Made by a program: the position numbers and the translations under genes. A stretch of 64,000 bases of DNA from a phage. Shown piece after piece: positions 3,211 to 62,897 of this stretch. The notes under the pieces were generated by a model. It was not told the origin of the DNA. It saw only the letters and a program-made list of their open reading frames with translations, and searched no databases. Each line of letters begins with the position of its first letter. Within the stretch, counting starts at the first letter, position 1. The stretch lies in the sequence record OZ346228.1, one strand, 5' to 3'.

Positions 3211-3582
3211 ATGTTAGTAAAAGGTACTCACACAGTCAAACAACGTATCGAAGTTGAGATCGATGACTGCGAGCTGAAGCATATTTTACGGTCATGTTCC
3301 AACGTTTTGCTCCTTAGTATTCTCCAGGAGCGAGCGGAGAACGAGTTCTTAAATGCACTGGCAGGCCGCCCTGGTGATTTCTGTGTGCGTAAGCGTGGTG
3401 ACAACAAGTCATGGCTGTGGGAGATAGACGCAGAATGGGATTACCATAAAAATGAGGGTATAGATGAACCTATTCGTGAATTGACGGACAACGAGGTTCA
3501 GATGTACAATGAAGTTTGTCAGTGGGCAAAAAGTCAACAAACTTATCTTGATCCTTGGTGGATGATCGAAAATAGTCGTTGA
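3211..3582 (+). CDS. hypothetical protein
   Basis: RBS gaggaggt before ATG at 3211 (MLVKG...). Confidence 0.55.
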   Translation: MLVKGTHTVKQRIEVEIDDCELKHILRSCSNVLLLSILQERAENEFLNALAGRPGDFCVRKRGDNKSWLWEIDAEWDYHKNEGIDEPIRELTDNEVQMYNEVCQWAKSQQTYLDPWWMIENSR

Positions 3583-3658
3583 CAGGAAGTAAGATTAGAT
3601 ATAAGATGCTTCACACAAACAGAGCGTTGATTGTTTAACACTTAAGGAGACCGCTAAG

Positions 3659-3913
3659 ATGAAAATTACTCTGAAGCCAGAATGCGTTGAAAATGACCGA
3701 GCTTTTAAAGATTGCACAATCGGTGCAATTTATGAAGCAGAGTTTTGTGAGAACCCTTTGGTAAAAGCCCTTCTGGAAGAAGGAGCTCCTCTATCACAGG
3801 AAGAGCTTGATGAGTTGGAAAACTCAGCACAGTGCCTTACCTTTAAAGATGATGAAGGAGACTCTGTCTGGTGCACTGTTAATGAAGTAGTTTTTGTAAA
3901 ACCTGAACATTAA
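3659..3913 (+). CDS. hypothetical acidic protein (paralogue of 3977-4249)
   Basis: RBS aaggagac; KPECVENDRAFKDCT... parallels KPDYLEKDSAFRDCT... in the next gene. Confidence 0.6.
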   Translation: MKITLKPECVENDRAFKDCTIGAIYEAEFCENPLVKALLEEGAPLSQEELDELENSAQCLTFKDDEGDSVWCTVNEVVFVKPEH

Positions 3914-5642: not shown

Positions 5643-6868
5643 TGAGCGTTATTCAACAATTCGCTAACCCGATGAATCCGCGTGAAACTGTTTTACTGGC
5701 TCACGGCATGATTAAACGTGTCAGCATCAAGCCTATCAAAGGTGCTGATCCTACAACAGGTATTAAAACCACTGTGTGGCAAGGTAAGAAAATTGAATCC
5801 AGCCACACCATCTCTTTACTGATTTCTGAACTGGATTCCTCTGATAACCTGCTTCAAGGTGGTGAAGAAGTTTGGATCAGCATGGGTGATAAGCTGCTTA
5901 AACCTGGTCATCAAGACTCTGTCTCTGTTAAAATTGATGACAAGTGGGAAACCGTAACGCCGGGATGGATCGTAAATATTCCTTTGAAGGCAAACGAGCA
6001 TAACGGTAAGACCTATTACAAAGGCTCACTGGCTAAGATGGTCAAGCTGGGTGCAGGAGAGGCTCCAGCAGCGACTCAGCAGCAAAAACAGCAACAAGGT
6101 GCACAATCACAAGGCCAGAAGCAGAAACCTCAGCAGAATGCCAATCAGGACGTTTTACGCATCTATGGTGATGTGACTCAGATTGTTGGCAACGTGGTTA
6201 CTGTTAATGACCACAAGATTGGCGAAGGTGCTATGGTTGTAACTGATGAGCAGCTTAAAGACCTGGTGGTAGGTGGTCGTGTTGCAGCCATTGTTGACAA
6301 AGACACCGGAAACATTATCAGTGGTTTCAAGGCCTATCCTCCTAAGGCAGAGAACGGCACTCAAGGCTCTGGTGGCAAGCGTAAATCCTCTTACGACCCT
6401 ATCGGTGTGGAAACGGGGCATAGCATCAATGCGTTGCAGATCATCCTGGATCGCGGGTTTAAGGTAGACGACCCACTGGGCGTGGCTAAAACACTGCACG
6501 TAGTCACCATTGAGCTTAAGAAAGAGTATGCTCAAGCCACCAACCGAGCTGAAGATGAAGTAGGTGCCAGTGTCGGTAATGCGGTGTTGAACGCTTGTCG
6601 CCGTATTGACAAGAAAACGAAAGTTGATGATTTTGCAGTGGCAATTACTGCAGAAGCAAAAGATGTCTTGACTAATCTAGCTGAGCCGTTGTACGATTGG
6701 ATCAAGAACGGTGCTGAGTCCACTGACCATCAAGAACCTCAGGCTGCCAAACAGGAAGCAGCTCCACAGCAAAACACTGTAGACGCTCCTCCTGTAAATG
6801 ATGCGGAAGATGACCCAATGGATCAGAATCCAGCACAGTACGTCTTTGATGATGACATCCCATTTTAA
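5642..6868 (+). CDS. SSB-like protein with Gln-rich linker and acidic C-terminal tip ...DDDIPF
   Basis: C-terminus VFDDDIPF identical to the bacterial SSB C-terminal tip; Q-rich low-complexity linker (QQQKQQQGAQSQGQKQKPQQNANQ). Confidence 0.55.
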   Translation: MSVIQQFANPMNPRETVLLAHGMIKRVSIKPIKGADPTTGIKTTVWQGKKIESSHTISLLISELDSSDNLLQGGEEVWISMGDKLLKPGHQDSVSVKIDDKWETVTPGWIVNIPLKANEHNGKTYYKGSLAKMVKLGAGEAPAATQQQKQQQGAQSQGQKQKPQQNANQDVLRIYGDVTQIVGNVVTVNDHKIGEGAMVVTDEQLKDLVVGGRVAAIVDKDTGNIISGFKAYPPKAENGTQGSGGKRKSSYDPIGVETGHSINALQIILDRGFKVDDPLGVAKTLHVVTIELKKEYAQATNRAEDEVGASVGNAVLNACRRIDKKTKVDDFAVAITAEAKDVLTNLAEPLYDWIKNGAESTDHQEPQAAKQEAAPQQNTVDAPPVNDAEDDPMDQNPAQYVFDDDIPF

Positions 6869-7709: not shown

Positions 7710-8135
7710 ATGATCTATGAAATGCCAAAACTGATTCGTGACGATGCCCAAAACGCCCACACCTTTATCATGGGCAAGCGCATGGATATTATTTGTCATA
7801 AAGATTTCTGGGAAGGTAGTTACTTCACAGAATATTTTGGTAAACTGGATAATGGTCTGCTGATCCAGTTCTACACCGATGCGGAAAACAATATCTGCTG
7901 GGAGTTCGAAACTGAAGATATCCATAAACTTTTCACCTTCCTAGGTATTAAGGTTGAGGCCAAGTTTGAAGAAGGCGAGTGCGACGATTGTGGATTCTAC
8001 GAGGTAACAGATTTCTATCTCCCAAGTGGTGAGAACCTTTACTATGAAAGCCACTTCGGCAACTCAAATATGCCACAAGGTTGGGATGAGTTTTTTGAAA
8101 TTGCGGAAGAGGAGCTGACATACCGTGATTATTGA
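7710..8135 (+). CDS. hypothetical protein
   Basis: 141 aa ORF in same-strand array. Confidence 0.5.
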   Translation: MIYEMPKLIRDDAQNAHTFIMGKRMDIICHKDFWEGSYFTEYFGKLDNGLLIQFYTDAENNICWEFETEDIHKLFTFLGIKVEAKFEEGECDDCGFYEVTDFYLPSGENLYYESHFGNSNMPQGWDEFFEIAEEELTYRDY

Positions 8136-8583
8136 TACTGTAGCGGGAGATTTAATCTCCCTTTTTAAGAGCGGTGCTGGTCACCTGATCCACGGTTGTA
8201 ACTGCTTTCATACAATGGGTGCAGGCATAGCGAAAGATATTGCCCGTGAGTTCCCTCAAGCACTGGCAGCCGACAAAGAGACTGCCTATGGTAATCTGGA
8301 CAAGCTGGGTATGTTTTCTTGTTGGGAGCATTTTGCCAAGAACAGGGTCGTATATGGAATCAACCTGTATACCCAGTTCTACCCAGGGCCCAATGCTGAA
8401 TACTTCTCAATAATGAAAGGTTTTGAGCGAGTCAACGAGGTATTCAAAGGTGTGTCATTGCCGTTCTACATTCCTAAAATTGGATGCGGTATTGGCGGTC
8501 TAAAGTGGGAACATGTAGAAGATGTAATTAATCTTGCAACCACAGATATTGATGTGGTTGTAGTAGAGTACAAAAAGTGTTGA
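8125..8583 (+). CDS. macro-domain-like protein (ADP-ribose binding/processing family), tentative
   Basis: GAGHLIHGCNCFHTMGAGIAKDI and IGCGIGGL resemble macro-domain nucleotide-binding loops; GTG start overlapping upstream stop. Confidence 0.45.
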   Translation: MIIDTVAGDLISLFKSGAGHLIHGCNCFHTMGAGIAKDIAREFPQALAADKETAYGNLDKLGMFSCWEHFAKNRVVYGINLYTQFYPGPNAEYFSIMKGFERVNEVFKGVSLPFYIPKIGCGIGGLKWEHVEDVINLATTDIDVVVVEYKKC

Positions 8584-55234: not shown

Positions 55235-55296
55235 AACTAACTACCTCACTGCATACTTTCCATAATAAGTAAAGCCGGGTAATCCCGGCTATGTTG

Positions 55297-56010
55297 TTAA
55301 ATATACTCTGTTACATCCTTGAAGCTCGAAGGCTTCATAATCTTACCTTTACTGTCAAGGAATATAATAACTTTATTACCGTTGTAGAACTCCTCTTTAG
55401 CAACGAAACCTTCGTAGCGACCACCAAAACGACGCTCAAGATCTTCAATCTCTAACTCTATGAGCAATTCAGTAGACATATCTGCACTGGCACCGTGAGA
55501 ATATCGTAGATGGTTGATCCGTGCAAACTTGCTGTCATTAGATTTGAGAACCTTCCGCATCATCCCACACACATCGCCGCGAAGCTGGAACAGCAAAGCT
55601 GTTGACAACTCCGCTAAGCGGTAAGCTGACGCTCTTTGCTTGGATGTGTTTTTCGCAGCGATCAGTGTATCATAGAACTCACCGATCTTGAACTTAAGAC
55701 CTCGTGGATTATCAAACAGGTTTGACCACTTTTCGTGATTATCATTAACAAGATAAGCGGCATAACTTGTGACAACGTGAAGATCGCAGGCCTCTTTTAG
55801 CAGGTGATCTCCACCATCACCTTTCTCCAGCTCTTCCAAAACCTCATTGAACTCTTCCTCAATGAAGCTAAGCTGTAATTCGAATGGTGTGTATGATTTT
55901 TTCACTTTAGCTGCCACACGGTTCCAGTTTTCCACCCAGTTGGCAGACCAAAGGTAGTTTTCAGGCTGAGACAGTTTTTCCAGGTTGTCGATCAGTTTAG
56001 TATTCAGCAT
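55297..56010 (-). CDS. MazG-like all-alpha NTP pyrophosphohydrolase, tentative
   Basis: FIEEEFNEVLEELEKG...EACDLHVV resembles the MazG/dUTPase-like EExxE...D metal-binding motif. Confidence 0.4.
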   Translation of the reverse strand: MLNTKLIDNLEKLSQPENYLWSANWVENWNRVAAKVKKSYTPFELQLSFIEEEFNEVLEELEKGDGGDHLLKEACDLHVVTSYAAYLVNDNHEKWSNLFDNPRGLKFKIGEFYDTLIAAKNTSKQRASAYRLAELSTALLFQLRGDVCGMMRKVLKSNDSKFARINHLRYSHGASADMSTELLIELEIEDLERRFGGRYEGFVAKEEFYNGNKVIIFLDSKGKIMKPSSFKDVTEYI

Positions 56011-56023
56011 TAAAGGTCTCCTT

Positions 56024-56785
56024 TTAAAGTTCCATAAAGTTTTCTACAGTTTCAATAAATGCTTTATCAGAGAAAGCGTCAACAGCACCGTTAAACCATA
56101 CAGGGATCCCGCGATCCTCATATTGATAAAGGTCGCTACGTGAAATGCCACTCCCATCTGCACTCTGCGAGTCATACTTGTTTACAATCAGCAGTTTTGT
56201 GCCTTTACAAGTAGCAGGAAACAATTCCCAGTTAAAATTAATAACTGTGTTAGAACAACCTACTAGGATCACCATATCATTGCTTGTGAGAGATGTCAAC
56301 AGGTCATACATGTCTGTATACTTAGGAGCAACCTCACCGAAGAACACTACATTGGGCTTAACCCAGGTATACTTGCCTGTATCTACCTCCGTGTATCCGA
56401 TATTTTTAATTACATCATTACCTTCAGCATCTTCGTAGGTGATTTCAGGCAAATACCCGTGGACATGTAAAATATCTTCATGTTTTACACCAGCACGCTC
56501 CAGCAAATCATCTACATTGGTGGTAAGGTTGATCACACGACCAGACCAGCGGGAATACCACTCAGCGATCCGAAGATGTGCAAGGTTAGGATCAACACTG
56601 CCCAGAGCTACACGACGTGCATTGTAAAAGTCATGCACCTTATAGTAGTTCTTGGCAAAGGTGTGGATGTTGCACACCTCATCGATGCTGAAATTCTCCC
56701 ACATTGCAGTGCTACCAGATCGGAAAGTGGGAATACCAGATTCAGCGCTCAAACCAGCACCGGAGATAATAATCAGTCGTCGCAT
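56024..56785 (-). CDS. Sir2-family (sirtuin-like) NAD-dependent protein
   Basis: N-terminal GAGLSAESGIPTFRSG matches the Sir2 NAD-binding signature. Confidence 0.7.
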   Translation of the reverse strand: MRRLIIISGAGLSAESGIPTFRSGSTAMWENFSIDEVCNIHTFAKNYYKVHDFYNARRVALGSVDPNLAHLRIAEWYSRWSGRVINLTTNVDDLLERAGVKHEDILHVHGYLPEITYEDAEGNDVIKNIGYTEVDTGKYTWVKPNVVFFGEVAPKYTDMYDLLTSLTSNDMVILVGCSNTVINFNWELFPATCKGTKLLIVNKYDSQSADGSGISRSDLYQYEDRGIPVWFNGAVDAFSDKAFIETVENFMEL

Positions 56786-56793
56786 AAGTGTCC

Positions 56794-57144
56794 TCAGTAG
56801 ATGTTTTGTTTAATCTCTATTCCAAACTTCTTGAATGAGTCAGCAGCAAGCATAAATTTACGAGCTGCCGATGGATTAGAAGTATGCACGAAAATAATCA
56901 CGTTGTCAATAAGTGGTGGCTTTCCGAATACAAGTTTCTCCTCTAGCGCAGAGAAGCAGTCGTACCCTTCAAGCACTTCACCTAGATCATTGTCAAAATA
57001 CCACTCAGATACGCGTCTGTAGAGCTTTCTCTTATCATTAAGAAAATCCATAAACTCAGAAGAATTCTTTAGCCACAGAGCGTCTGGGAGTCCATAATCT
57101 GACGGATCTCTAAAATCATCAAGCCACACAATCCACTTCTTCAT
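56794..57144 (-). CDS. hypothetical protein
   Basis: ORF overlapping RNA ligase stop. Confidence 0.45.
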   Translation of the reverse strand: MKKWIVWLDDFRDPSDYGLPDALWLKNSSEFMDFLNDKRKLYRRVSEWYFDNDLGEVLEGYDCFSALEEKLVFGKPPLIDNVIIFVHTSNPSAARKFMLAADSFKKFGIEIKQNIY

Positions 57145-58076
57145 TGCATATAGTCCTCGTTGTGGAAATAGTAGTCCAGTATCTCACGACGCTCCTGCTC
57201 TAATAAGCAATTCCACACATCTTCTGTATAGTTGCTACGAATAAATTTTACCATACCGTAAAACTCTTCGTCAACACGTTTAAAGATATCATCATCCCAA
57301 ATCTTCCAAGCTTTACCCCTCATTACTGCCTTCCGTGCCAGATAGTATGGAGACTTGATCTTCAGCTGCAGATCATAAGGGTAGTAAGGCTTACGAATCA
57401 TATACCCTTCACCTCTTGTTTCTGCAGCTAATTCTTTTGCATAGCTGAACGGAATTTCACGCACAGTGTTAGGACGTTTTGCACCAAGGTATTTGGCAAT
57501 CCCATCTAAAGCTGCTTCTGGTAGCATTATTCCAGAATCATTATATCTGCAACCTATCAAATATGCGCCATGGTCTTCTTGAACAATATGCGGATCTGAA
57601 GGGTGACAAATTTCAAACATGAATGTCATGTTTTCATTGCCCATAACCTTCTTGATAAGATCTAAATTACCACATTGCTCTTGGATGGTTTCCTTTGCAA
57701 GGTTACAATATGGAGAATCAAGAGACCCGGTTGTTGAGAACAATAGGTCACCTTTATGAGATGATACCACACCAAGGAATCCGTTCTTTTTCTCTACCGC
57801 AGTCACAAGCTTATTGTCAGGCAGGTTGGTGGAGTTTTCTCCCAAGTTAAACACTTTTGTGAAGGGCCATGCCACAACATTTCCTTCATTACCTACAACA
57901 ATGCCTCGGCACTCCAGTAAACGAGGGGACAAATGCCATAAATTGTTGTAAAATACTTTTCTAGCATATTTATAGATCTTTAACCCGAGATCTGGGTAAT
58001 ACCTACTGGTTACAAGACCTTTGTCAACTAGGTCGTCTGCATTAAAATACTTCATTATATGTTCCTCATTTGTCAT
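57141..58076 (-). CDS. RNA ligase, T4 Rnl1-like
   Basis: LLECRGI, KVFNLGEN, motif I EKKNG, motif IV EGYMIRK, motif V LQLKIK colinear with T4 RNA ligase 1. Confidence 0.8.
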   Translation of the reverse strand: MTNEEHIMKYFNADDLVDKGLVTSRYYPDLGLKIYKYARKVFYNNLWHLSPRLLECRGIVVGNEGNVVAWPFTKVFNLGENSTNLPDNKLVTAVEKKNGFLGVVSSHKGDLLFSTTGSLDSPYCNLAKETIQEQCGNLDLIKKVMGNENMTFMFEICHPSDPHIVQEDHGAYLIGCRYNDSGIMLPEAALDGIAKYLGAKRPNTVREIPFSYAKELAAETRGEGYMIRKPYYPYDLQLKIKSPYYLARKAVMRGKAWKIWDDDIFKRVDEEFYGMVKFIRSNYTEDVWNCLLEQERREILDYYFHNEDYMQ

Positions 58077-58118
58077 TTTGTCAGTCTATCCTGCCACACA
58101 AATAACCTAGTGTCAACA

Positions 58119-58147
58119 CTTGAAATTAACAAAACAGTTAGGTATAC
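58119..58147 (+). promoter_or_regulatory. sigma70-type promoter in divergent intergenic region
   Basis: TTGAAA, 17 nt spacer, TATACT. Confidence 0.6.
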
Positions 58148-58176
58148 TACCGTTGAAATTAAAACGGAGGGTCGCT

Positions 58177-58587
58177 ATGTCTAAAATGCTATATATCGTG
58201 CGTGGTCTACCAGGGTCTGGCAAATCAACACTGGCAAATGAGCTATCTTTAGAGGGTCTGTATCCACATTTTGAGAACGACATGTTCTGGTATGACGATG
58301 ACGGCAATTACAACTGGGATGCAAGTAAAGTAACACTCGCAGCAAAATGGTGCAAAGATAACGTAGAAGATATGATGCGTATGGGATACGACCGTATCGT
58401 GGTAAGTAATACGTTTACAAAAGAAAAACATGTGCAGGAATATGTTGACATGGCAATCACTCACGGGTATAGTTATACCGTGATCGTGGTTGAAAACCGC
58501 CACGGTAATAAAAGCATTCATGATGTTCCAGACAAGGTTGTGGATCGTATGGAACGCCAGCTTAAAAACTGCATTAAACTTAAATGA
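58177..58587 (+). CDS. P-loop polynucleotide kinase-like protein (T4 Pnk kinase-domain-like)
   Basis: RBS ggaggg; Walker A GLPGSGKST; N-terminus parallels T4 Pnk MKKIILTIGCPGSGKSTWA. Confidence 0.6.
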   Translation: MSKMLYIVRGLPGSGKSTLANELSLEGLYPHFENDMFWYDDDGNYNWDASKVTLAAKWCKDNVEDMMRMGYDRIVVSNTFTKEKHVQEYVDMAITHGYSYTVIVVENRHGNKSIHDVPDKVVDRMERQLKNCIKLK

Positions 58588-58594
58588 GGAATGT

Positions 58595-59149
58595 ATGAAA
58601 TACTTTGTAACAAGCGACACACACTTTCTCCACCAGCGGGTCATGGAGTTTGATTCATGTCAAAAACACAGATCTCAGTATGATCACAATCTTGACAGTA
58701 TGAATGCAGGAATCATCGCCGAGTGGAACTCTGTTGTGTCACCTGCAGACACTGTGTTCCACTTGGGAGATATTGCGTGCACTAATGATAAGAATATCAA
58801 CAACTTACTTCCAGATATTCTAAATATGTTGAACGGACATATTATTCTTGTTCGTGGCAACCATGACACAAGGACGACTGTCAGAATTATGAAAGAGTTC
58901 GGTCATGAGGTTGTAGATTATTACGAGCTTCGCCACAACAAGAATTTGATCTGTATGAGCCATTACCAGTTTGCAAAGTGGAACAGAAAGCCTCACGGAT
59001 CAGTCCAACTGTTCGGTCATGCTCACGGAACCACACAACAGTTGTTTGGCAGGCAGCTTGATGTCGGTTGGGATGTGTGGGGGAGACTCTTACCATTAGA
59101 AGAGGCATACCGTATTGCAATGAGTTTTGATATTGACAGCAGGGAGTAA
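58595..59149 (+). CDS. calcineurin-like metallophosphoesterase
   Basis: SDTHF, GDIACTND and VRGNHD motifs; RBS gagga before ATG (MKYFVTSD...). Confidence 0.75.
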   Translation: MKYFVTSDTHFLHQRVMEFDSCQKHRSQYDHNLDSMNAGIIAEWNSVVSPADTVFHLGDIACTNDKNINNLLPDILNMLNGHIILVRGNHDTRTTVRIMKEFGHEVVDYYELRHNKNLICMSHYQFAKWNRKPHGSVQLFGHAHGTTQQLFGRQLDVGWDVWGRLLPLEEAYRIAMSFDIDSRE

Positions 59150-59196: not shown

Positions 59197-59547
59197 ATGA
59201 AAGATGGGGATAAGCTGCTATATCTTAAAGTCCCCCTTGAAATACTATCTATGTCAAAAGTTTTGAATGACACAACTGGGGAGGTTGTTGTTCTTGACTT
59301 GTATGACAAGATCGTATACTGCTACCTGCACAACTGGTATAAGCTTGGAGGAAATTCACGCTTCACACCAAGCACAAGGAAAATTGCAGCAGATGTTGGG
59401 ATAAAGAAAACAAAAGCAGCAGCGTGCGTTAAAACTTTAGAATGTGCAGGAGTGGTTGAAACATCCACACAAGGGAGAGGTAAAAGATGCACATTTTCCA
59501 AAGTTTTGCCACCAGAAGAAGTTATTCGGATGTCAACAACTGGTTAG
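59197..59547 (+). CDS. putative DNA-binding regulator (winged-helix-like), tentative
   Basis: HTH-like segment STRKIAADVGIKKTKAAACVKTLECAGVV; followed by palindromic operator array. Confidence 0.4.
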   Translation: MKDGDKLLYLKVPLEILSMSKVLNDTTGEVVVLDLYDKIVYCYLHNWYKLGGNSRFTPSTRKIAADVGIKKTKAAACVKTLECAGVVETSTQGRGKRCTFSKVLPPEEVIRMSTTG

Positions 59548-62084: not shown

Positions 62085-62159
62085 GCCCTGTTAGCTTAGT
62101 GGATAAAGCAGCGGCCTTCTAAGCCGTTGACACTGGTTCGAGTCCAGTACGGGGTGCCA
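62085..62159 (+). tRNA. tRNA-Arg (anticodon TCT)
   Basis: Manual fold: D stem GCTT/AAGC, anticodon loop CTTCTAA, T loop TTCGAGT, 3' CCA encoded; acceptor stem has two G-U pairs. Confidence 0.7.
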
Positions 62160-62163
62160 AATT

Positions 62164-62250
62164 GGGGAGTTATCCCGTAGAGGTAGCGGTGTAGACTGTA
62201 AATCTATTGTCATTGCGACTCGGGTGGTTCGACTCCACCACTCCCCACCA
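62164..62250 (+). tRNA. tRNA-Tyr (anticodon GTA), long variable arm
   Basis: Acceptor GGGGAGT/ACTCCCC, anticodon loop CTGTAAA, T loop TTCGACT, CCA encoded. Confidence 0.8.
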
Positions 62251-62364
62251 AATTTATATTTTTAGATGCATAAATAATACAGATAATGGCATTGATATTT
62301 ATCGTCGTTTATACTAGTCACTAACTGCTCGAAAATCAGTGTCATTATCAGTATTATTTATAAA

Positions 62365-62455
62365 GGAGGGTAGGGAGCAATGGTGCTCAATCGGTCTTGA
62401 AAACCGTCCCGTTGAGGATGACTCGATGATGGTTCGATTCCATTACTCTCCGCCA
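62365..62455 (+). tRNA. tRNA-Ser (anticodon TGA), long variable arm
   Basis: Acceptor GGAGGGT/ACTCTCC, anticodon loop CTTGAAA, T loop TTCGATT, CCA encoded. Confidence 0.7.
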
Positions 62456-62553
62456 CATTGTTGACCTTGTAATTAAGCGAAAGTCGGAAGCAGAACCGGA
62501 TTATCAAATGTTACAGTCGTCATCGCCGACTAGCAACATGGTCAACATACTGA

Positions 62554-62652
62554 GCTAGGTAAGCCCTTTGGCAAGGGCGAGGATTTTTAATCCTGAAAAT
62601 AGACGAGGTAGTCGTTGAATACATAGGTGGTTCGATTCCATCACCTAGCACC
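62554..62652 (+). tRNA. atypical tRNA-like gene; anticodon loop TTTTTAA (Lys-TTT-like), about 28 nt extra between anticodon and T arms; may be a pseudo-tRNA
   Basis: Acceptor GCTAGGT/ACCTAGC, D arm GCCC-TTTGGCAA-GGGC, T loop TTCGATT; variable region far longer than class I; CCA not fully encoded. Confidence 0.35.
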
Positions 62653-62657
62653 TTTTT

Positions 62658-62733
62658 GCTGATGTAGCACAATCGGTAGTGCAATTGATTTGTAATCAAT
62701 AGGTTGTAGGTTCAAGTCCTGCCATCAGCACCA
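62658..62733 (+). tRNA. tRNA-Thr (anticodon TGT)
   Basis: Acceptor GCTGATG/CATCAGC, anticodon stem-loop ATTGA-TTTGTAA-TCAAT, T loop TTCAAGT, CCA encoded. Confidence 0.8.
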
Positions 62734-62734
62734 A

Positions 62735-62809
62735 GGCCCTGTAGCTGGAAGGTTCAAGCAAGCGACTCATAATCGCCAGACGGTGGTTCAATTCCACCCA
62801 GGGCCACCA
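62735..62809 (+). tRNA. tRNA-Met/Ile2-type (anticodon CAT)
   Basis: Acceptor GGCCCTG/CAGGGCC, anticodon loop CTCATAA, T loop TTCAATT, CCA encoded. Confidence 0.8.
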
Positions 62810-62820
62810 AATAGTAAATA

Positions 62821-62897
62821 CTCCGCGTAGCTCAGCTTGGTAGAGCGCCTGATTTGGGATCAGGAGGTCGAGTGTTCGAATCACTCCGTGGAGACCA
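62821..62897 (+). tRNA. tRNA-Pro (anticodon TGG)
   Basis: C1-G72 acceptor, D stem GCTC/GAGC, anticodon stem-loop CCTGA-TTTGGGA-TCAGG, T loop TTCGAAT, CCA encoded. Confidence 0.8.

Follow-up and report, generated by a model that had tools for sequence, protein, structure and literature searches.

A zinc-less sirtuin gene in a putative RNA-repair cassette of a V5-like Escherichia coli phage

The subject of this analysis is a Sir2-family (sirtuin) gene located at 56024-56785 of a 64,000-nucleotide stretch of phage DNA (sequence record OZ346228.1), which is referred to below as the window. The window belongs to a Vequintavirus, an rV5-like E. coli phage and myovirus of the V5-like group, and is 99.9% identical to deposited genomes. 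An initial annotation made from the letters alone had described a Sir2-family gene next to a MazG-like gene, with a macro-domain-like gene elsewhere, and this arrangement was borne out: the first two genes lie on the same strand with a 13-nt gap between them, while the third lies on the other strand at a distance of 47.4 kb. However, the decisive context had been overlooked. The Sir2 gene has a cREC gene on one side and the MazG-like gene on the other, and all three belong to an operon that starts with an RNA ligase gene and lies beside a kinase gene and a phosphoesterase gene. All six genes of this cassette fall within 55297-59149, and these and their associated features are listed here, with labels from the related Escherichia phage CarlMeissner where informative.

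57141-58076, minus strand: T4 Rnl1-like ATP-dependent RNA ligase, operon gene 1 (Pfam RNA_lig_T4_1, 1e-14; PHROG 562, 1.9e-65; "RNA ligase" in CarlMeissner)
56794-57144, minus strand: cREC, a cyclic-phosphate-processing receiver-like domain protein, operon gene 2 (Pfam cREC_REC PF20274, 9.1e-14, 52 bits against a cut-off of 27)
56024-56785, minus strand: Sir2 (sirtuin), zinc-less and class III-like, operon gene 3 (Pfam SIR2 PF02146, 6.9e-28)
55297-56010, minus strand: MazG/HisE/dimeric-dUTPase-type all-alpha NTP pyrophosphohydrolase, operon gene 4 and the last (a superfamily-level call)
55273-55290, minus strand: GC-rich, terminator-like hairpin 7 nt past the MazG-like stop codon (7-bp stem with 6 G-C pairs)
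58077-58176, no strand assigned: divergent intergenic region of 100 nt between the ligase operon and the kinase/phosphoesterase pair (from the sequence and the open reading frame layout)
58177-58587, plus strand: P-loop polynucleotide 5'-kinase-like protein with the motif GLPGSGKST (Pfam AAA_33, 1e-10; PHROG 2071 and PHROG 505 "polynucleotide kinase")
58595-59149, plus strand: calcineurin-like metallophosphoesterase (Pfam Metallophos_2, 1.9e-6, and Metallophos, 7.1e-6; PHROG 547, 1.6e-52)

The four operon genes are closely packed, with a 4-nt overlap between the ligase and cREC genes, an 8-nt gap between cREC and Sir2, and the 13-nt gap already mentioned between Sir2 and the MazG-like gene. 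The hairpin is probably the operon terminator, as judged from a consensus match of a kind that does not occur above chance in this region, and a promoter scan of the divergent intergenic region found promoter-like hexamers, again not above chance. It should be noted that the start of the Rnl1-like ligase in the annotation of related records corresponds to position 58058. Five of the six cassette genes encode domains of the kinds usually involved in healing and sealing RNA ends. The kinase carries the label "polynucleotide kinase" in CarlMeissner as well, the cREC protein is 61-64% identical to those of Mydovirus-type loci, and the metallophosphoesterase may act on RNA 3' ends as a 2',3'-cyclic phosphodiesterase/phosphatase. 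Homologues of NADAR, HAD_SAK_2, and HAD_PNKP were sought in the window as well and none were found.

The region 55297-58076 is 99.9% identical to the corresponding DNA of Escherichia phages isim, nomine, and CarlMeissner, and when used as a query it is covered to at least 80% at ≥90% identity in 119 Vequintavirinae records. More than 100 deposited Vequintavirus genomes have annotated genes that coincide with the coding sequences of Sir2, the MazG-like protein, and the macro protein. In CarlMeissner, the genes matching the operon are labeled hypothetical protein, "sirtuin domain NAD-dependent deacetylase", hypothetical protein, and RNA ligase. Their neighbours are an ATP-dependent DNA ligase at one end and the polynucleotide kinase and phosphoesterase at the other. 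From the matching annotation and the deposited relatives, we can conclude that the cassette genes are real, conserved, and already publicly annotated. As the system has also been described computationally, its novelty as a genome-scan finding is low. A side result of these comparisons was that 18-25 records labeled "Campylobacter phage" (MG065653.1 and others, with Campylobacter jejuni given as host) are 99-100% identical to the cassette region, which suggests a mislabeled host or phage contamination in the submissions.

The Sir2 open reading frame encodes 253 aa, with the N-terminus MRRLIIISGAGLSAESGIPTFRSG, and contains SGAGLSAESGIPTFRSG. Its assignment to the Sir2 family, which the initial annotation had based upon an NAD-binding signature, is secure: the motif is present, the protein scores 98.2 bits against the Pfam SIR2 model (cut-off 24), and it matches PHROG 2162 "Sir2" at 1.5e-108. 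The best sequence matches in the PDB are E. coli CobB (1s5p, 3e-21) followed by SIRT5. An AlphaFold2 model built with 38 homologues as input reached a mean pLDDT of 89.6, and a Foldseek search with this model returned CobB as the top match (E ~1e-18, TM 0.75/0.84), followed by Archaeoglobus Af1 and SIRT5, with no SirTM, ThsA, or DSR-type structure among the top 50. We then considered two alignments of the phage clade, comprising 16 and 38 sequences and extending down to 34% identity. Invariant in both are G9-A10-G11, S16, F21-R22, Y54, R57, N90, and H109-G110, while D93 is kept by every sequence of the smaller alignment and by ≥90% of those in the larger one. Thus, of the catalytic features singled out for checking, His109 is present in every clade member, whereas the zinc-binding cysteines are absent; no clade member has a zinc-ribbon cysteine between H109 and the FGE motif, where CobB does have them. 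In the AlphaFold2 model, the small domain is still beta-structured. The class III Y-x-x-R motif (Y54 and R57) is likewise kept throughout the clade, but the canonical TQNID motif has become TTNVD, with Q replaced by T in most clade members, and the peptide-stapling GTSxxVxP motif has become GCSNxVINF. Among the NCBIfam models, those for CobB are nearest, yet the best scores just 122.6 bits against a cut-off of 243 and the rest score lower. Judged by these sequence features, the protein belongs to a phage-specific sirtuin clade derived from class III (CobB/SIRT5-like) enzymes, from which the zinc-binding cysteines have been lost. Homologues occur in ~1000 deposited phage genomes, including that of T5, whose Sir2 (T5.102) is 57% identical to the protein of the window.

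The protein is thus class III-like, and both of the other classes considered were rejected. A SirTM assignment conflicts with the retained HG (rather than QG), with the lack of an adjacent or fused macro domain, and with the lack of the class M motif GVGx[NT]TP. For the defence-type SIR2 NADases (ThsA, DSR, and SIR2-HerA; PF13289), the SIR2_2 model gave E=0.097 and 13 bits against a cut-off of 24.5, none of the PADLOC Sir2 models was matched (the sole match, to PDC-S65, is insignificant), and the fold neighbours are deacylases. The protein also has a sirtuin fold rather than the ADP-ribosyltransferase (ART) fold with an R-H-R-R tetrad that defines Tpt1/KptA.

The MazG-like gene required a less direct approach. 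On its own, the protein falls below the gathering score of the Pfam PRA-PH model (E=0.089, 13.7 bits versus 21.3) and has no sequence match in the PDB, although it matches PHROG 671 "nucleotide pyrophosphohydrolase" at 5.7e-22. An exhaustive search showed that the protein belongs to a separate family with 82 representatives (50% identity) of ~200-270 aa each, and among 51 aligned members N30, E53, E56, D76, V79, N158, K161, Y199, K223, and K226 are invariant. E53, E56, and D76 lie within EExxE...ExxD, the motif by which the MazG/HisE superfamily binds metal, and the four-helix core of the superfamily is also recognizable. PRA-PH is matched by 38 of the 51 homologues at E≤0.01 (best 3.9e-7) and MazG by 12, while a profile of the whole family finds weak matches to HisE and MazG chains only in the PDB. 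Thus, the MazG-like call of the initial annotation is confirmed at the superfamily level by these sequence comparisons. Residues ~196-230 form a conserved C-terminal beta module not present in canonical MazG or HisE, with no variation at Y199, K223, and K226 and ≥90% conservation of R198, F217, and P227; this module may be a nucleotide- or nucleic-acid-binding add-on.

The genomic surroundings of Sir2 were followed across 56 viral loci carrying Sir2 relatives, in a semi-quantitative sampling with no formal null model. The screening queries were the cassette proteins together with phosphoesterase and NADAR proteins encoded at other loci. In Mydovirus-type phages, in which Sir2 is ~55% identical, the whole set is present in shuffled order (metallophosphoesterase, Rnl1-like ligase, cREC, polynucleotide kinase, Sir2, DNA ligase, and MazG-like), while three further lineages have kept the metallophosphoesterase, Rnl1-like ligase, polynucleotide kinase, Sir2, DNA ligase, and MazG-like genes, with cREC either moved or not detected. 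All of the T5-like loci sampled (Sir2 45-57% identical) carry a gene for a HAD_SAK_2 phosphatase 0.8-1.3 kb downstream of Sir2. In T5 this gene is T5.105, which matches the Pfam family "HAD domain in Swiss Army Knife RNA repair proteins" at 4e-20. Erwinia phage KEY has its HAD_SAK_2 gene upstream of Sir2 rather than downstream, indicating that the linkage survives rearrangement. In other lineages, a metallophosphoesterase, HAD_PNKP, or NADAR gene lies 0.5-7.5 kb from Sir2, such as the metallophosphoesterase 5-7.5 kb upstream in phi92-like loci, the one ~4.5 kb downstream in another lineage, and the Metallophos and HAD_PNKP genes that both occur near Sir2 in a 140-kb phage. By Pfam, no RNA-repair neighbour was found within ~3.5 kb of Sir2 in phi92-like phages or among the tested immediate neighbours in nt-1 and 7-11, but depositor annotation does place a phosphatase or metallophosphoesterase 1.4-3.3 kb away. 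The HAD_SAK_2 linkage in T5-like phages supports an association of Sir2 with RNA repair independently of the V5-like cassette, and inheritance alone would hardly account for recurrence across Vequintavirinae and their relatives, Demerecviridae, and jumbo phages.

Two further observations were made at these loci. In the T5 RefSeq record, T5.105 (positions 6142-6648 of sampled locus L019) is annotated "Sir2 (NAD-dependent deacetylase)", despite its HAD_SAK_2 identity; this annotation is probably wrong and has likely been propagated through PHROG 18062. NADAR proteins are known anti-DarT1 factors, and a NADAR gene occurs ~5.8 kb downstream of Sir2 in Mydovirus-type loci (L048-L051, L053, and L079), directly upstream of Sir2 in a 345-kb jumbo phage (L015/L081), and near Sir2 in one further locus (L080). 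Such proximity may reflect functional coupling or a clustering of counter-defence genes.

The exact neighbourhood of the window has been described for Escherichia phage V5 and Proteus phage Mydo as the second of several types of phage sirtuin locus in a purely computational study (Iyer, Burroughs, Anantharaman, and Aravind 2022, Viruses 14:1977). Indeed, all of the components given for this type are found here, namely a sirtuin together with a T4-like RNA ligase, cREC, a nucleotide kinase, MazG, and the optional calcineurin-like phosphoesterase. These authors proposed a KptA-like, NAD-dependent removal of 2'-phosphates, with cREC and other components opening cyclic phosphates or processing ADPr>P; their third type pairs the sirtuin with a Swiss-army-knife HAD phosphatase, and they explicitly described the phage sirtuins as not coupled to a macro gene. 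We similarly favor, at slightly less than an even chance, a reading of the cassette as an RNA (tRNA) repair system in which Sir2 would supply an NAD+-dependent step in the healing of broken RNA, chiefly tRNA cut by host anticodon nucleases or toxins. The analysis shows the domain identities, the operon layout, the intact catalytic residues, and the recurrent linkage of Sir2 to RNA-end processing in unrelated phage families, whereas the substrate of Sir2, how its step would work chemically, and what cREC and the MazG-like protein contribute are inferred. The kinase would phosphorylate the 5'-OH end of the cut RNA, the metallophosphoesterase and/or cREC would open the 2',3'-cyclic phosphate, Sir2 would carry out an NAD+-dependent, KptA/Tpt1-like removal of the RNA 2'-phosphate, cREC and possibly the MazG-like enzyme would dispose of nucleotide by-products, and the Rnl1-like ligase would seal the break.

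Cyclic phosphodiesterases of the metallophosphoesterase type can release products that bear a 2'-phosphate (Keppetipola and Shuman 2007). Such products would create a need for 2'-phosphate removal in a pathway of this kind. In the sirtuin reaction, an O-nucleophile attacks C1' of NAD+ with loss of nicotinamide, after which a His-assisted attack by the ribose 2'-OH gives a 1',2'-cyclic intermediate, and the two steps of Tpt1 parallel both of these half-reactions. Given this parallel chemistry, the retained His and the anion-binding Y54 and R57 would be compatible with a phosphate substrate, and by analogy the Tyr/Arg pair, which binds a carboxylate in SIRT5, could hold a phosphate. The narrower proposal that Sir2 is a non-ART, sirtuin-fold RNA 2'-phosphotransferase, or a broader RNA-end ADP-ribosyl-transferring enzyme, would constitute a new catalytic activity for the sirtuin fold, and we regard it as improbable. 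Transposon data from a related phage, Bas54, in the supplementary tables of the HIDEN-SEQ preprint list many insertions in all six cassette genes, including 50 insertion sites in the sirtuin gene with mean counts of ~400. Because insertions are tolerated, the cassette genes are dispensable on E. coli K-12, as expected of conditional counter-defence genes.

Several points weigh against a role in RNA repair. By both sequence and fold, Sir2 resembles an ordinary lysine deacylase, and a kinase, a phosphoesterase, and an Rnl1-type ligase could heal and seal RNA without any NAD step, as do Pnkp and Rnl1 of T4. The MazG-like gene is located next to Sir2 in Vequintavirus only, whereas elsewhere it follows the DNA ligase gene. 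No recognizable RNA-repair neighbour was found in two of the sampled lineages (L023 and L073) or within 3.5 kb in phi92-like phages, and in Vequintavirinae and their relatives the linkage may partly be inherited synteny, as the conserved block also holds a DNA ligase. Literature searches for an experimental study of any phage sirtuin, of T5 Sir2, or of cREC returned computational papers only.

The macro-domain gene was examined separately.

8125-8583, plus strand: stand-alone macro-domain protein of 152 aa (Pfam Macro PF01661; orthologue of T4 Tk.4/AdfM)

Here too the initial call held up, as the protein exceeds the Pfam Macro threshold (1e-5, 25.9 bits versus 22). That alignment spans residues 22-53 only, and it is the full-length match to DarG models (NCBIfam 1.7e-12, PADLOC 1.4e-13) and to PHROG 335 (1.4e-59) that supports the assignment. 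Homologues occur in 2831 phage records. The T4 homologue, Tk.4 according to the T4 reference annotation, shares 39% identity and 65% positives in a full-length alignment of 153 aa (E=1e-43) and belongs to the same PHROG. In a 2025 preprint, tk.4 is reported, on genetic evidence and for T4 only, to be the single T4 gene required against DarTG2, and it was named adfM. The best PDB sequence matches are the DarG macrodomain (5m3i), followed by yeast Poa1p and SCO6735. T79-K80 of DarG, which includes the catalytic Lys80 in TaqDarG numbering, aligns with T83-Q84 of the window protein, and T4 Tk.4 (positions 3423-3890 of locus L018) similarly has TQ; thus, in both phage proteins Gln (T-Q-F) takes the place of the catalytic lysine of DarG and TARG1. 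With Gln in this place, the chemistry of the macro protein probably differs from that of DarG and TARG1, and AdfM-type proteins, if they do reverse DarT2 modification, probably do so by a different route, as judged from this alignment. The NCBIfam DarG equivalog cut-off was not reached (47 versus 250 bits), and the protein consists of a macro domain only, without the C-terminal DarT-binding domain. No ADP-ribose-related domains were found among the gene neighbours, which are small hypothetical genes on the plus strand. By analogy with T4, the macro gene, located in a different gene block from Sir2, is most likely an independent counter-defence gene, an AdfM orthologue that removes DarT2-type ADP-ribose from phage DNA. 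Yeast Poa1p is an ADP-ribose 1''-phosphate phosphatase, and a similar role in clearing ADP-ribose 1''-phosphate from the RNA-repair pathway is possible, but disfavored by the distance of the macro gene from the cassette and by its presence in T4. The distance from macro to Sir2 is ~4.3 kb shorter in the window (8125 to 56024) than in CarlMeissner (MZ501054.1, 78162 to 130351), indicating an indel somewhere in the intervening accessory-gene region despite the 99.9% identity of the cassette. A separate arrangement was seen in Salmonella phage 7-11 (L070), where a macro homologue (35% identical) at 2048 is separated from Sir2 at 8001 by a DNA polymerase gene.

With respect to Sir2 itself, the chief competing explanation is a conventional NAD+-dependent lysine deacylase similar to CobB and SIRT5, perhaps a desuccinylase, that would remodel host or phage protein acylation. 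In this case it would owe its place in the cassette not to RNA chemistry but to shared regulation or to support at the protein level. E. coli CobB, Af1, and SIRT5 are its best sequence and structure matches, the CobB models are the nearest in NCBIfam, and His109 and the class III Y54-x-x-R57 pair are invariant across the clade. In addition, a DNA ligase and an RNA ligase, both lysine-adenylylating enzymes, share the conserved block with Sir2, and in a possible variant of our own the target would be the active-site lysine of these neighbouring ligases, kept free of non-enzymatic acylation. The NCBIfam CobB scores are nevertheless far under their curated cut-offs, the zinc-ribbon cysteines are gone, the TQNID and GTSxxVxP motifs are altered, and a general deacylase would leave the recurrent linkage to RNA-end phosphoesterases in unrelated phage families unexplained, so that we regard this reading as unlikely, albeit one to be taken seriously. 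Many prokaryotic Sir2 domains of conflict systems are NADases, and NADAR and other ADP-ribose-processing genes are found near Sir2 in some phages, as might fit an NAD+ glycohydrolase or other NAD consumer acting in host shut-off or interfering with NAD-derived immune signalling, with no role in RNA repair. This appears highly improbable, given the insignificant SIR2_2 score, the unmatched PADLOC models, and fold neighbours that are deacylases rather than ThsA or DSR; depletion of NAD would also hurt the phage itself.

The initial annotation had instead suggested an ADP-ribosylating sirtuin paired with the macro protein, a SirTM-like writer and eraser modifying host proteins. The SirTM class is recognized by two features, a QG that replaces HG and a macrodomain that is either fused to the sirtuin or encoded next to it (Rack et al. 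2015). Sirtuins can ADP-ribosylate, both genes are present in one genome, and the macro homologue of phage 7-11 is ~6 kb from Sir2. The Sir2 of the window, however, keeps HG, has class III relatives, lacks both the GVGx[NT]TP motif and an adjacent or fused macro domain, and is encoded 47 kb from the macro gene on the opposite strand; among the 56 sampled loci, a macro gene within 8 kb of Sir2 was found in the 7-11 type only, and the T4 orthologue protects against DarTG2 in a phage that has no such sirtuin cassette. The pairing is therefore largely refuted and we consider it hardly tenable. The broader theme of NAD- or ADP-ribose-based counter-defence is still plausible in general, while its specific Sir2-macro logic is wrong. 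Lastly, the MazG-like protein could be a house-cleaning enzyme of the nucleotide pool (a dUTPase, dCTPase, or non-canonical NTPase) serving DNA replication, with its adjacency to Sir2 being incidental. Dimeric dUTPases are its closest folds, and in Mydovirus-type and other relatives the gene lies ~3 kb from Sir2, past the DNA ligase. Yet it is co-transcribed with Sir2 here, given the 13-nt gap and a hairpin that appears only after the MazG-like stop codon; it stays in the same conserved block in all relatives, and it is included in the neighbourhood described by Iyer et al. (2022). We view the incidental explanation as possible, but would sooner doubt it than accept it.

These readings have different consequences. 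If the RNA-repair reading is true, the sirtuin fold would gain a nucleic-acid-directed activity converging on Tpt1, and phages would hold a second, NAD-dependent route to mend tRNA cut by host defences. If the enzyme is specifically a 2'-phosphotransferase, more than 1000 sequenced phages, T5 included, would be using it against RNA-cleaving host immunity. A plain deacylase would instead mean that a phage reprograms protein acylation, something rarely seen.

Two features adjacent to the cassette should also be mentioned. A small HTH protein (HTH_36/DUF6945) annotated as a putative transcriptional regulator is encoded at 59197-59547, directly downstream of the kinase-phosphoesterase pair and on the same strand, and could be a regulator of the divergent cassette. 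A cluster of seven tRNA genes is located at 62085-62897, ~3 kb downstream of the cassette. It includes a tRNA-like gene of 97-99 nt (62554-62652) that has a UUU (Lys) anticodon loop and an unusually long variable region, is unassigned by ARAGORN, scores 35.5 bits against the Rfam tRNA model, and is named "tRNA-Lys" in related records. Because tRNA-Lys(UUU) is a classic anticodon nuclease target, a variant of it beside a repair cassette may be relevant.

When compared with known systems, the locus is closest to the type 2 neighbourhood of Iyer et al., as found in phages V5 and Mydo, with which it shares an identical gene set in a near-identical genome and from which it shows no substantive difference. 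Like the T4 pair of Pnkp and Rnl1, and presumably to the same end of reversing anticodon-nuclease damage, the cassette combines an Rnl1-family ligase with a 5'-kinase and a 3'-end phosphoesterase, but its kinase and phosphatase are separate proteins, the latter is a metallophosphoesterase instead of a HAD domain, and cREC, Sir2, and the MazG-like protein are additional. Tpt1/KptA enzymes resemble Sir2 in their association with RNA ligases and cyclic phosphodiesterases, whereas their ART fold differs from the Rossmann-type sirtuin fold, so that we propose a functional analogy and claim no membership. With CobB and SIRT5, Sir2 shares sequence (~1e-21), fold (~1e-18, TM 0.75-0.85), and the GAGxS, FR, N, D, HG, and YxxR residues; it departs from them in its missing zinc cysteines, its TTNVD and GCSNxVINF motifs, its NCBIfam scores below the cut-off, and its RNA-repair context. 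The SirTM/Zn-macro pairs of Rack et al. (2015) similarly feature a Sir2 and a macro domain in one genome, but the window has HG, a distant macro gene, no GcvH-L/LplA2 context, and no zinc site. The MazG-like protein belongs to the dimeric dUTPase/MazG/HisE superfamily, from whose known members it differs as a distinct ~230-aa family with a C-terminal beta module and no sequence-level PDB match. Finally, the macro protein shares with T4 Tk.4 (AdfM) its identity, its size, and PHROG 335, and has the DarG macrodomain as its best PDB match, while it differs from DarG by Gln84 in place of Lys80 and by the missing DarT-binding domain; its activity is predicted from these relationships.

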